Positions 3,107 to 54,112 of a stretch of 57,074 bases of DNA are shown piece by piece. The stretch lies in the UHGV virus genome UHGV-2195224. The stretch is one strand, 5' to 3'. How positions within the stretch are numbered: position 1 is the first letter of the stretch; each line of letters opens with the position of its first letter. The notes under the pieces were generated by a model. It saw nothing but the letters and a program-made list of their open reading frames with translations, had not been told where the DNA came from and did not search any database. The position numbers were made by a program, and so were the translations under genes. This DNA is from a virus.

Positions 3107-3469
3107 TCATTCATTCCCCATTTCGGTGATGGTCAGCTCCAGCTTCCCACCTTTGGTAACGGGCATCTTCACAACGCGGTAATCAACGACCTGAGCATCA
3201 TCCAGCCAGAAACCTGCTTTGGTGAGTGCGTCAAAAGCGGCCTTTTGCAGATTATCAAGGTCACGGCGACGGCGATCCGGCATGTGGCACTCAATGCTGA
3301 TTTTCACAGGAATAGCCAGGCCGATATCCAGCATTGCGTTTTTAATGATTCGGGCGACATTATCGCGGTATGCTTGCCCCTCTGCGCTGACGTGCGTGCG
3401 CCCACGATTATGGCGGTAATAGCGATTATTGCTCGGCGGCCAGGGTAGTGTGATATGGTAAGTATTCAC
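3107..3469 (-). CDS. rusA: Holliday-junction resolvase RusA
   Basis: 120-aa [46 protein letters not shown]...[25 protein letters not shown]. Confidence 0.9.
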
Positions 3470-3756
3470 GCCTTAATTACCCCCTCTTTCAGCCAGATAA
3501 CCTGCGTTCTCGCCATACCTTCCAGCGCGCATTCTTTTGCATATCCAGCGTCAACAAAATGCGTGCGACGGTCGATCTCGTCGTGACAGTCAGAACATGC
3601 AATGGTGGCAATAAGGTCTGGCGGTTTAATACCGGTGCCGCACAATCCAGCCAGCCGGATATGTGCCAGTACTGACGTTTCAGGATTGCCATTACATACG
3701 CCAGGGATTCTTACCTGGCATTCCCGACCACGTGCTGCTTTTCTCAAATCAGCCAT
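3466..3756 (-). CDS. ybcO: DLP12 YbcO-like protein (DUF1364, Cys/His-rich putative nuclease)
   Basis: From internal ATG: [37 protein letters not shown]...; 96 aa; overlaps rusA start. Confidence 0.8.
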
Positions 3757-11317: not shown

Positions 11318-12010
11318 ATGAAAAAAGAAACTCTTGCTGATCGCTTAAACCTAGCGATGGAACAATCTGGAATGTCTCAAGGCGCTCTTGCAAAGGCGTC
11401 TGGCGTAGCTCAACCCACAATCTGGAGACTGACAAGCGGCAACGCGCGCGGCTCAACAAAAATTGTTGAAATAGCTAATGCATTGGGTGTTCGAACAGAG
11501 TGGCTCTCATCAGGCATAGGCCCGATGAGAAATGACGGTCAACAATTAGGGAAGCCTACTGCCAACCATCCCAAATACTTCAAGATTGACGTTCTTGATA
11601 TAGAAGTGAGTGCCGGGCCGGGAGTCATCAACCGTGAGTTTGTAGAAGTTCTACGCTCGGTTGAGTACTCGTTTGACGATGCTCGTCACATGTTCGATGG
11701 TAGGAAGGCAGAAAATATCCGCATCATTAACGTACGCGGTGACAGCATGTCAGGAACGATTGAACCTGGTGATCTTCTGTTCGTTGATATCACGGTTAAA
11801 TCTTTCGACGGTGATGGCATCTATGCGTTTCTGTACGACGACACCGCCCATGTAAAGCGCCTGCAAATGATGAAGGATAAGCTGCTGGTTATCTCTGATA
11901 ACAAGAGCTACTCACCGTGGGACCCGATCGAGAAAGACGAGATGAACCGGGTGTTCATCTTCGGTAAGGTTATTGGGAGCATGCCCCAGACGTACAGGAA
12001 ACATGGATAA
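11318..12010 (+). CDS. cI: CI repressor (HTH plus LexA/S24-like autocleavage domain)
   Basis: From internal ATG: MKKETLADRLNLAMEQSGMSQGALAKASGVAQPTIWRL...; C-terminal S24 peptidase domain with GDSM serine motif; no SD before ATG, consistent with leaderless pRM mRNA. Confidence 0.85.
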   Translation: MKKETLADRLNLAMEQSGMSQGALAKASGVAQPTIWRLTSGNARGSTKIVEIANALGVRTEWLSSGIGPMRNDGQQLGKPTANHPKYFKIDVLDIEVSAGPGVINREFVEVLRSVEYSFDDARHMFDGRKAENIRIINVRGDSMSGTIEPGDLLFVDITVKSFDGDGIYAFLYDDTAHVKRLQMMKDKLLVISDNKSYSPWDPIEKDEMNRVFIFGKVIGSMPQTYRKHG

Positions 12011-12076
12011 TCAGTACTGTGCTGATGAGTCGTTTAGGGGATAGTAAATTTAATTAGAATTAGACGAGAGCGATTT

Positions 12077-51891: not shown

Positions 51892-52566
51892 ATGAAAACA
51901 ATCCATGACATCCGGCGGTCTAACGCCAGAAAACTGAGAGATGGTGTTGGCGGGAATTCTTCCTTTGCCACTATGATTGATCGCGAGCCAACCCAGACCA
52001 GCAGGTTTATGGGAGATGGTGCTACTAAAAATATCGGTGACAGCATGGCACGACACATCGAAAAATGTTTCGACCTGCCTGTCGGATGGCTCGATCAAGA
52101 ACACCAGACAACGAACATCACAAAAAAACCTGATGTTTCAATCACTAATAAACAAATCACATTAGTCCCTGTCATATCATGGGTACAGGCCGGAGCATGG
52201 AAAGAAGTTGGATATTCTGAGGTTGATTTGAGCACAGCAGAAACGTATCCCTGCCCTGTACCCTGTGGGGAAATGACTTATATCTTGCGGGTGATAGGTG
52301 ATTCAATGATTGATGAGTACCGCCCGGGAGACATGATTTTTGTCGATCCTGAAGTACCTGCCTGCCACGGTGACGACGTTATTGCATTGATGCACGATAC
52401 AGGTGAAACCACCTTCAAAAGGTTGATAGAAGATGGGACACAGCGTTATCTCAAAGCGTTAAACCCAAACTGGCCTGAGCCTTACATTAAGATCAACGGT
52501 AATTGCTCTATAATTGGTACTGTGATTTTCTCAGGAAAACCAAGAAGATACAAAATCAAAGCCTAA
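51892..52566 (+). CDS. cI: CI-type repressor (HTH plus S24 LexA-like domain)
   Basis: 224-aa ORF; C-terminal ...LRVIGDSMIDEYRPGDMIFVDPE... S24 peptidase motif. Confidence 0.85.
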   Translation: MKTIHDIRRSNARKLRDGVGGNSSFATMIDREPTQTSRFMGDGATKNIGDSMARHIEKCFDLPVGWLDQEHQTTNITKKPDVSITNKQITLVPVISWVQAGAWKEVGYSEVDLSTAETYPCPVPCGEMTYILRVIGDSMIDEYRPGDMIFVDPEVPACHGDDVIALMHDTGETTFKRLIEDGTQRYLKALNPNWPEPYIKINGNCSIIGTVIFSGKPRRYKIKA

Positions 52567-52603: not shown

Positions 52604-52719
52604 ACTTGACAATGTACCCTTGAGATACATAATGTACCCAAGAGAAACAACAAACAGGCAGGATGCCCACAAAGTAGCCGCCTGGGGCATATGAAGTCCA
52701 GGATGATTCGTTAGCAACA

Positions 52720-52748
52720 AAAAAGCGCCCTATAGGACGCTTCGCTCT
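52720..52748 (-). terminator. intrinsic terminator after the DUF1311-like gene
   Basis: minus-strand hairpin agcgtcctatagggcgct followed by TTTTTTGTTGC. Confidence 0.5.
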
Positions 52749-52768
52749 TTAACAATCTGGATGACTTA

Positions 52769-53281
52769 TTACTCAGATTTGAACTTTGGTTCTGGCAAAA
52801 GAGGAGGAGTTGAGTCCTCGAATCGTAGCCAGTGCTCCCAGATATCGTGGGATTGTAATTCCAGAAGACCAATTTGACGTGATGCAACTGCAGTGCCAGC
52901 TATAGTTCCTCCTGCATAATCAACCTGGACGGACTTTGACGCTTTCTCAATTAATTCTGTCCAAGCTTCACTTTCCGCGTTAAAAGAAGCAGTTAATTCC
53001 TGCAGACGCTGTGGATCATCCTTGTTGTCTTGTTTCAAACGATTCAGGGCGGCCACCGAATACTTATTCTTAACCCAACTAACCTGAGCTAACTGAACTC
53101 TCTGACAAGCGTCCATATCAGTAGTTGTTTCCTGAGGCATATCAAAGCAGGAAATAAAAAAAGTCTCAACACCATCATTTAGACTACTGCTCGGCTGGTT
53201 CAAAGCATCAGAAGCATTGGATGCTATCGGTATTATCAGTGCTACCGACAGAATCAAACGTTTAACATAAATCGCTCCCAT
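52769..53281 (-). CDS. secreted/periplasmic protein (DUF1311 / LprI-like lysozyme-inhibitor family?)
   Basis: 170-aa ORF with signal peptide and SD agagggg; own terminator; convergent with cI; family assignment from memory. Confidence 0.5.
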   Translation of the reverse strand: MGAIYVKRLILSVALIIPIASNASDALNQPSSSLNDGVETFFISCFDMPQETTTDMDACQRVQLAQVSWVKNKYSVAALNRLKQDNKDDPQRLQELTASFNAESEAWTELIEKASKSVQVDYAGGTIAGTAVASRQIGLLELQSHDIWEHWLRFEDSTPPLLPEPKFKSE

Positions 53282-53559
53282 TTAATTATCCCCTCTAAGA
53301 ACAGAGTCATCCAGATTAGCCGAATCCTTGTTGTTGGGGAATAACCAGGCCCACCTCGCCTGATGTGGCTAAAAGCAGGCACATAACAGCTAAGTATTTT
53401 CAACCAGAGAGAATCCTTAGCGTTGTGGTGAATGCGGCTCAGCGCACGCGGGTTAAGGTTGAGGCTGACAGTCGACCTTCTGTGGATACCCACCCGCCTG
53501 GTGTGCAACCTTCGCCAGGCACCGGGAGGCACCCGGCACCACAACTTTATGCTGTGTGT

Positions 53560-53606
53560 AGTCCTGGCGGTACCAGCTTGTACCCTTGCTTCCTGCTGGT
53601 ACCGCT
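53560..53606. promoter_or_regulatory. putative OL/pL of prophage 2
   Basis: GGTACCAGCTTGTACC and a second GGTACC share GTAC half-sites with the cro-cI gap operators. Confidence 0.4.
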
Positions 53607-53749
53607 CTTTTTACAAAACAGAGAAGAGCATCACCGGACGACGGGCTCATAACCCAATCCACCCGGGCGGCTGCCACCGCAGGTGTTCTTCTCTGTTTTG
53701 TGGAGAAACCAACCGACCTTGCAGGGTCGATATGATGAGGAACAGCAAA

Positions 53750-54112
53750 ATGGCTAGCGAACGCAGTACCAACGTGCAGGAATTTATCGGGGAGCTGGAC
53801 GGCGGCGTATTTGAAACCAAAATCGGCGCAGTTCTCAGTGAAGTCGCTTCCGGTGTGATGAACACGAAAACCAAAGGTAAGGTCTCGCTCAACCTGGAAA
53901 TCGAACCATTTGATGAGAACCGTGTGAAAATCAAACACAAACTCTCATATGTTCGCCCGACTAACCGCGGGAAAATTTCTGAAGAAGACACCACCGAAAC
54001 GCCGATGTATGTCAATCGCGGTGGTCGCCTGACTATTCTGCAGGAAGACCAGGGACAATTACTGACTCTTGCCGGTGAACCTGACGGAAAACTCCGCGCA
54101 GCAGGTCATTAA
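53750..54112 (+). CDS. hypothetical early-left protein (CPS-53 YfdP-like, 120 aa)
   Basis: ATG with SD gagga; MASERSTNVQEFIGELDGGVFETKIGAVLSEVASGVMNTKTKGK... Confidence 0.5.
   Translation: MASERSTNVQEFIGELDGGVFETKIGAVLSEVASGVMNTKTKGKVSLNLEIEPFDENRVKIKHKLSYVRPTNRGKISEEDTTETPMYVNRGGRLTILQEDQGQLLTLAGEPDGKLRAAGH

Follow-up and report, generated by a model that had tools for sequence, protein, structure and literature searches.

What does a long, nearly perfect RNA hairpin do between the leader of a phage early-left operon and the first gene of that operon? The question was raised by a stretch of 57,074 nucleotides from virus genome UHGV-2195224, here called the window, which is the immunity/early-left end of a lambdoid prophage of the SfV/SfIV/SfII/ST64B/CPS-53 type. 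The original prediction, made from the letters of the window, took the hairpin for a candidate antiterminator RNA of the put or nut type, or else for a regulated leader element. Our analysis led to another reading of the hairpin, and it also corrected the map of the early-left leader with respect to the position of PL, the nature of the presumed operators and the place of the real boxA.

The leader was mapped from the repressor gene onward. The cI gene (51892-52566, Peptidase_S24) is followed by its terminator at 52578-97. The probable PL, TTGACA-16-CATAAT at 52606-52633 on the + strand, matches the sigma-70 promoter at 11/12 positions and is the sole strong match 3' of cI. It lies among phage-specific operator-like repeats, and homologous leaders begin after phage-specific promoter/operator sequences. 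The distance from PL to the long hairpin is about 980 nt. Shortly after PL, a conserved structured 5'-leader domain was found at 52646-52714 (+ strand), in which a hairpin CCUGG..CCAGG covaries and the closing helix is ACGAA/UUCGU. This domain was present in 62 of 111 early-left loci, and also in Yersinia YeP1-3, Pectobacterium ZF40 and Salmonella SPN3UB. It resembles putL in position; we rejected its identification as put, because only short motifs (CGAAC, GGAUGA) are common to the two and the put signature is absent. It is followed by a hairpin at 52723-42 (+ strand), which stands directly before the boxA CGCUCUUUAACAAU at 52743-56 (+ strand). This boxA is an exact match to the rrn type, about 100 nt after PL. 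In 17 of 125 related loci, the module made of hairpin and boxA was found at this distance from PL and was followed by differing cargo genes; the copy in the window (52723-52756) may serve the early-left operon as a site where Nus factors are loaded. The boxA and the 5'-leader domain are better candidates for a role in early antitermination than the long hairpin.

The region between boxA and the long hairpin contains two further modules. On the minus strand, an ORF of 170 aa (52769-53281) with its own terminator (52743-22, minus strand) had no Pfam match. This ORF is a moron that has entered the leader at a point where other phages have different cargo. It is the sole sizeable ORF between PL and the first early-left gene, and the original prediction was right that no N-like ORF lies there. 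On the + strand, a structured small RNA (sRNA) at 53392-53614 matched RF02076 over its full length with 45.4 bits (gathering score, 47; E value, 7e-8). STnc100 and PasD represent the prophage sRNA family RF02076 (bioRxiv 10.64898/2026.05.13.724894), and judging from its sequence the STnc100-like sRNA of the window is probably a divergent member or a PasD-like sister of that family. It is closed by GUUGUGGUG/CACCACAAC and ends with its own intrinsic terminator (53567-53612, + strand), which has an 11-bp stem (GCGGUACCAGC/GCUGGUACCGC), a 17-nt loop and the U-tract UCUUUUU. The arms and loop of this terminator stem account for the GGTACC/TGTACC repeats at 53567-53605, which had been read as OL-like operators immediately before the long hairpin. 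The segment CGCUCUUUUUAC (53603-14) was considered as a boxA and rejected: it is only the U-tract of the terminator, and homologues do not keep it. A 10-mer, TGTACCCTTG, occurs twice, at 52613-52622 in the PL/OL region and at 53579-53588 in the terminator loop before the hairpin. This repetition is probably a coincidence, because the terminator module is common to phages with other immunity regions.

The first early-left gene was correctly placed at 53750 in the original prediction. It is yfdP (53750-54112, + strand), which is named YfdP in RefSeq E. coli genomes and had no Pfam match, and it is followed by yfdQ (DUF2303) and then by yfdR, xis and int, all on the + strand.

We then turned to the fold of the hairpin itself. 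The 17-bp arms with one G.U pair that had been predicted, caaaacagagaagagca (53614-53630) and tgttcttctctgttttg (53684-53700), were borne out, the wobble being G53628.U53686, and the helix (P1) extends further. P1 begins inside the U-tract of the terminator. It comprises 20 standard or wobble pairs between a 5' arm at 53613-53632 and a 3' arm at 53682-53701 (both + strand), 23 pairs in the MFE structure of the isolated element and 25 when 53385-53760 was folded. The MFE of the element on the + strand was -47.3 kcal/mol. Among 200 dinucleotide-preserving shuffles the value was -27.1 +/- 3.4 (z = -5.9), and none of them was as good. The G+C-rich part enclosed by P1 is internally structured, in agreement with the original prediction: P1 closes a three-way junction with an imperfect, conserved arm, P2 (53634-53666), and a variable hairpin, P3 (53667-53680), so that the element measures about 89 nt. 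The P1, P2 and P3 modules were also present in the fold of the 376-nt context. From the junction outward, P2 consists of the helix P2a (53634-39/53661-66), an invariant internal loop (GAC, 53640-42; AAUCC, 53656-60) and a tip of three G-C pairs (53643-45/53653-55) carrying the 7-nt loop CUCAUAA (53646-52). P3 is a short hairpin in the window, GCGG-CUGCCA-CCGC. Family members differ in the sequence and length of P3, which ranges from a 4-bp hairpin to an insert of about 45 nt and is absent in the Acidobacteriaceae copy; the recurring loop classes are CUGCCA/CAGUCA, YUCCUAA and UUGCAG.

Two features lie between the element and the ribosome binding site of yfdP (SD, 53737-42; ATG, 53750). A conserved tail, GUGGAGAAAC (53700-53709, + strand), stands 3' of P1 in early-left copies, and a small hairpin with a UGCA loop follows at 53714-53729 (+ strand). 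The stem of the latter varies in homologues, and the UGCAG motif is kept. Pairing of the tail with the U-tract was considered and rejected, since the tail is kept even in copies in which the 5' U-tract is absent (L065 and L092). Two further ideas were dropped, because each holds for some members only: that the P3 loop kisses the UGCA hairpin, and that the YUCCUAA loops have an anti-SD-like role.

The long hairpin is a genuine RNA structure of the + strand, and its pairing is maintained by covariation. In an alignment of 16 early-left sequences, the proposed structure was 91.9% paired, compared with 34-52% when the partners were slid, and 7 pairs were changed on both sides; the observed values were reached by 0 of 500 shuffles. 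The 20 pairs of P1 were 94.4% paired in the early-left alignment (A1), with double compensatory changes in 4 of them. For P2a, we used 33 distinct P2 domains of all types: double changes occurred in 6 of 6 pairs, and 90.9% of the cells were paired (slid controls, 26-57%; matched by 0 of 500 shuffles). RNAalifold independently yielded the same three-way junction, including the P2 arm. The uninterrupted run of P1 pairs is 23 long in the E. coli group and 15-17 elsewhere, and a single mismatch (column 14/86), about 10 bp away from the junction, recurs in many homologues. Most of the family members are closely related to one another, and the P2 core itself served as the seed for part of the sampling. 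With regard to the strand, the frequent G.U and U.G pairs are compatible only with the + strand, and covariance model R1 scored 109.6 bits on the + strand and 39.8 bits on the minus strand. The covariance analysis across homologous prophages that had been suggested for the hairpin thus found the pairing conserved with compensatory changes. Simple action as a terminator, which had also been raised, does not fit the sequence after the stem. There, GUGGAGAAACC follows P1, no U-tract is present, and a terminator scan did not call this stem on either strand.

Is this structure a put- or nut-like element? HK022 putL is about 70 nt long, forms two stem-loops and lies just downstream of PL, and putR lies about 270 nt from PR (PMC9378689). 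The two, together with the annotated putL-like RNA of HK639, have a common signature, CGAACGGCGCG..UAAACCAUGCGUCGG..CAGGAxGAxCGGCAAU, which is absent from the element. Put RNA acts in cis on RNA polymerase, at the zinc-binding domain of the beta' subunit, and suppresses termination. Like the put sites of HK022 and HK639, the element is a structured RNA encoded in cis within the early leader of a lambdoid phage without an N gene. A put-like RNA acting on terminators further down the left operon would also suit the leaders of long operons that must pass terminators, and one phage contig, L103, has copies in two operons, loosely like putL and putR. However, the element (53613-53701) forms a three-way junction and is found about 980 nt from PL, beyond the leader terminators rather than between them and the promoter. 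It has no sequence or structure in common with HK022 putL/putR or HK639 putL, and covariance models R1 and R2 found no match in the early regions of HK022 and HK639. Moreover, copies occur in late leaders after Q genes, where Q already antiterminates, and in tRNA arrays, and a PL antiterminator would have no role there. We therefore regard a put-like function, the reading first given to this hairpin, as highly improbable. A nut site was rejected as well, since no conserved boxA is found at the element and no N-like ORF is present.

To judge how widespread the element is, copies were sought by BLAST and with the 18-mer of the core. BLAST found it in 2520 of 5426 complete E. coli genomes (46%), at up to 5 places per genome, and among the matches listed the E. 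coli copies carried no annotation except an occasional hypothetical protein. It was also found by BLAST in SfV, SfII, SfIV, ST64B, mEp460, cdtI, LLS and Stx2a/Stx2c phages. In K-12, CPS-53 is without the element, which was lost by deletion. The 18-mer scan detected at least 120 viral contigs, and 38 plasmid records had a match, unannotated. With one genome per species, the 18-mer was present in Escherichia, Shigella, Citrobacter, Enterobacter, Kosakonia, Mixta, Leclercia, Raoultella, Phytobacter, Pseudescherichia, Pseudocitrobacter, Erwinia, Buttiauxella, Klebsiella and Pantoea. The matches outside Enterobacterales were mostly due to chance and inside coding regions; the exceptions were L197 and L215. 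A permissive cmscan of the element against Rfam 15 gave best E values of 0.14-8, far below the gathering scores, and Rfam gave no matches for five variants, which were Klebsiella tRNA-array, post-Q, other early-left and Acidobacteriaceae copies. The core sequence occurs in no paper of searchable full text; the papers on STnc100 and Pas do not describe the hairpin, and the SfIV genome paper mentions Q only. The element is a copy of a widespread, unannotated and undescribed phage RNA family. If the analysis holds, nearly half of the complete E. coli genomes carry an unannotated structured RNA, which is shared by many prophages of Shigella, Salmonella, Klebsiella and other Enterobacterales. It would be a new RNA family beside the sRNAs, tRNAs and antiterminator RNAs already described from phage leaders.

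The copies were found in four genomic contexts. The first is the early-left leader, as in the window, with the order terminator, cassette, tail GUGGAGAAAC, UGCA(G)-loop hairpin and varied first genes. The second is the late leader, after Q genes (PF06323 in L063 and L021; PF06530 in L224) and before holins, in most cases again just 3' of a terminator. A hairpin with a U-run precedes nearly all early-left copies, and also the late-leader copies L224, L243, L249 and L103. The third context is the end of the tRNA array that follows Q in lambdoid phages of Klebsiella and Raoultella. All 12 distinct copies of this kind begin about 5 nt 3' of the tRNA that closes the array (Arg, Asn, Phe or Thr), a gap equal to that between the tRNAs of the array themselves, and they have a P1 of 6-7 bp followed by RCCA (A/G-CCA). 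The fourth is a prophage-like region of Acidobacteriaceae, in which the copy is intergenic. SfV, ST64B and the window have one copy each. The phage contig L103 has two (12006-12066, + strand; 3310-3434, minus strand), one early-left and one in the late leader. The late-leader copy of L103 is divergent, has one G fewer in the stem and lies downstream of two terminators, between a 286-aa ORF in the position of Q and a 129-aa ORF in the position of the holin. The varied downstream genes, the two copies on L103 and the copies after Q genes and in tRNA arrays speak for an RNA unit that stands by itself, and against a regulator tied to a single gene.

The part that stays constant among these contexts is the tip of P2 with its internal loop. 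The 21-nt core GAC-GGG-CUCAUAA-CCC-AAUCC was identical between lineages whose P1 and P2a differ completely, including the Klebsiella tRNA-array type, the post-Q type, Pantoea L224 and Acidobacteriaceae L197/L241. P1 reads ACAAAACAGAG... in the window, GGCCUG/CAGGCC in the Klebsiella type, GGCCC/GGGCC in another late-leader type and GCGCGGGCUG in the Acidobacteriaceae MAG. To avoid the bias of seeding with the core, early-left copies were also found by their 3' flank alone, which gave 122 flank matches. The canonical core was present in 86 of them. Of the remaining 36, about 20 were true copies in which the core is altered and one was a truncated copy, and the set also included chance matches within coding sequence. 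The altered cores had changes at loop positions 32, 33, 37 and 38 or in the closing pairs; in all, positions 32, 33 and 37-40 varied. CAU was kept in all but one variant and was the least variable part of the loop.

[quoted passage not shown] A stretch of 14 nt, CGGGCUCAUAACCC (53642-53655, + strand), is exactly identical to C28-C41 of E. coli metZ and spans the three G-C pairs and the anticodon loop CUCAUAA, as in an initiator anticodon stem-loop, with the 'anticodon' CAU at 53648-50 (+ strand) in the loop of P2. Over 20 nt, the element and metZ were identical at 17 positions. The longest word shared with metZ in 5000 shuffles of the element was 12. The likeness does not go beyond the loop, its three G-C pairs and some adjacent bases: pairs 27-43 and 28-42 are mismatched, and there is no D or T arm. 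ARAGORN found 0 tRNA genes in the window and yielded only noise in relaxed mitochondrial mode, and the Rfam tRNA model did not match the element or the Klebsiella-type copies. If the analysis holds, the only invariant part of this RNA is a copy of the initiator-tRNA anticodon hairpin. Because the core is identical despite different stems and varied contexts, the element is best understood as an RNA unit complete in itself, with the tRNAfMet-like hairpin as its functional end, and not as a regulator tied to PL or yfdP.

The identity with tRNAfMet may have been inherited from an ancestral tRNA gene and retained for another reason. In this respect, a truncated tRNAfMet-like gene was noticed in a gammaproteobacterial MAG (L215, about 3640-3730), in which an internal deletion joins the CCC of the anticodon stem to the AAUCC of the T loop. 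The junction CCC|AAUCC is that of the element core, a sequence likeness that hints at the origin of the core. Taken further, the whole element might be a non-functional remnant, either a decayed tRNA gene or attachment-site fragment or a DNA inverted repeat that marks a recombination boundary between phage modules. The tRNA-derived core, the L215 gene and the resemblance of the ends of P1 (CACAAC/GUUGUG) to the closing helix of the adjoining sRNA would suit such a remnant. However, compensatory changes were found in three helices, wobble pairs are strand specific, the core is invariant across phyla, and 46% of the complete E. coli genomes carry the element. These findings argue for selection on the RNA, so that a mere relic has very little probability.

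The tRNA likeness could instead serve in cis. The element might be an operator that controls downstream translation, either by binding a protein or ribosomal site specific for the initiator anticodon arm or by pairing with the start region. Its place upstream of a ribosome binding site, with the conserved small hairpin and tail between them, would suit such an operator, as would the identity with the tRNAfMet anticodon arm. Yet copies lie at the ends of tRNA arrays, others are 90-150 nt away from varied downstream genes, and no complementary target of the UUAUGAG type was found on an mRNA strand in the window; an operator of this kind is accordingly quite unlikely. A search of the window for antisense targets complementary to the loop and stem gave matches at chance level only, the best of them on the non-coding strand of the holin gene.

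The length of P1 raised the further question of whether the helix, rather than the core, is what matters. Long helices processed by RNase III are known from the lambda N-leader hairpin and T7 R1.1, and E. coli K-12 is where RNase III sites have been mapped. An rRNA leader-trailer helix also serves as an RNase III processing helix (PMC10250234). The element is like these in having a long, near-perfect helix formed from the flanks of a structured RNA in a terminator-resistant transcription unit, and it occupies the same place as the lambda N-leader hairpin, between the leader and the first early-left gene. It differs in its cargo: those helices enclose rRNA or nothing, whereas P1 encloses a small, conserved arm that is tRNA-like, and its cleavage is a prediction. 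With 20-25 bp, P1 has the length of an RNase III substrate (about two turns, at least 20 bp of nearly uninterrupted double-stranded RNA). P1 might be purely a cis-acting RNase III site that determines where the yfdP-xis-int mRNA begins, how stable it is or how it is translated, with no role for the inner part. A perfect helix of 20-25 bp about 50 nt before a start codon, pairing maintained by compensatory changes and the mismatch that many homologues share about 10 bp from the junction all fit this explanation. But the inner core is more conserved than P1, it is identical where P1 has only 5-7 bp (in tRNA-array and post-Q copies) or is entirely different, and the downstream genes and their distances vary. 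We thus consider a purely cis-acting processing or stability element unlikely, albeit worth keeping in mind.

The explanation that we favor, to which we give somewhat less than even confidence, is that the element is a read-through-dependent RNA cassette that is excised at P1, probably by RNase III, and mimics the anticodon arm of the initiator tRNA. Since the cassette starts in the U-tract of the terminator, the complete RNA can be made only upon read-through, and the order of terminator and then cassette recurs in relatives. Polymerase coming from PL, presumably in a terminator-resistant state after induction, would pass the terminator at 53567-612 and produce the complete cassette RNA; the dependence on read-through is deduced from this arrangement. 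Judging from the length of the helix alone, RNase III would then cut the 20-25 bp of P1, separating the upstream sRNA from the yfdP mRNA. The small RNA so released would consist of a short stem with P2 and P3, which is the form of the tRNA-array relatives with their stem of 6-7 bp. Relatives with a P1 of 5-7 bp cannot be RNase III substrates, and excision, if general, therefore needs other routes. We infer that the released RNA would act in trans through its tip, by mimicking the initiator anticodon arm toward a factor that reads this arm. It is thus a testable candidate for tRNA mimicry by a temperate phage, as a decoy, a sensor or a translational device.

Which factor might read the tip? Candidate readers of the initiator anticodon arm are the P site of the 30S subunit with IF3, MetRS and the VapC toxins of enteric bacteria. 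VapC-type PIN toxins of Shigella and Salmonella are described as cleaving tRNAfMet between A38 and C39 (PMC4105405, citing Winther & Gerdes 2011). The element is a candidate decoy or sensor for such initiator-tRNA nucleases: the excised RNA might compete for, or be cut by, VapC-type toxins during lytic growth. This more specific idea is speculative and, in our estimate, distinctly unlikely. It is consistent with the hosts (Shigella, Salmonella, E. coli and Klebsiella), with the position beside phage tRNA genes, and with the natural variation, which is concentrated at positions 37-40 around the scissile bond with CAU fixed. If it were true, translation initiation would be protected from a shut-off resembling abortive infection. 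A literature search on initiator-tRNA decoys found nothing.

Phage-encoded tRNAs have been proposed to escape anticodon nucleases (PMC10264068). The element is similar to them in its occurrence in late leaders beside phage tRNA genes and in having the anticodon loop as its conserved or varied business end. Since it has no cloverleaf and is not a tRNA, it could only be a decoy or mimic and could not replace a tRNA in translation. Parts of tRNAs are also copied in other RNAs that are not tRNAs, among them the thrS operator, which binds ThrRS, the tRNA-like domain of tmRNA, the bacterial Y RNA YrlA, and the P1 C4 and P4 CI RNAs, which are processed by RNase P. Some of these are phage encoded and processed from leaders, like the RNA proposed here. 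The element has no homology with them, and what it copies is the initiator anticodon stem-loop, placed on an extended arm of a three-way junction. As for the adjoining sRNA, STnc100/PasD RNAs and the element share a location in prophage leaders or late regions, and the neighboring module of the window belongs to or resembles that family. However, the hairpin is a separate module: the RF02076 match stops at 53614, no STnc100 match was found over 53614-53701, and the hairpin also occurs without an STnc100-like sRNA, in mEp460 and Stx2c phages.

Other structured RNAs were noticed in the related phages. In some leaders that carry the element, a second, different long-stem element lies 500-700 nt upstream (L009, 2809-2948; L102, 4752-4838; L090, 1456-1542; L002, about 3455-3530). 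These second elements stand just 3' of a terminator and have ends of the CACAAC/GUUGUG type, and the one in L009 holds a perfect T-arm-like CUGGUUCGAUUCCAG. In the rightward early region of ST64B (L002, 909-1097, minus strand), a C4 antisense RNA (79.7 bits) was found beside isrK (64.3 bits).
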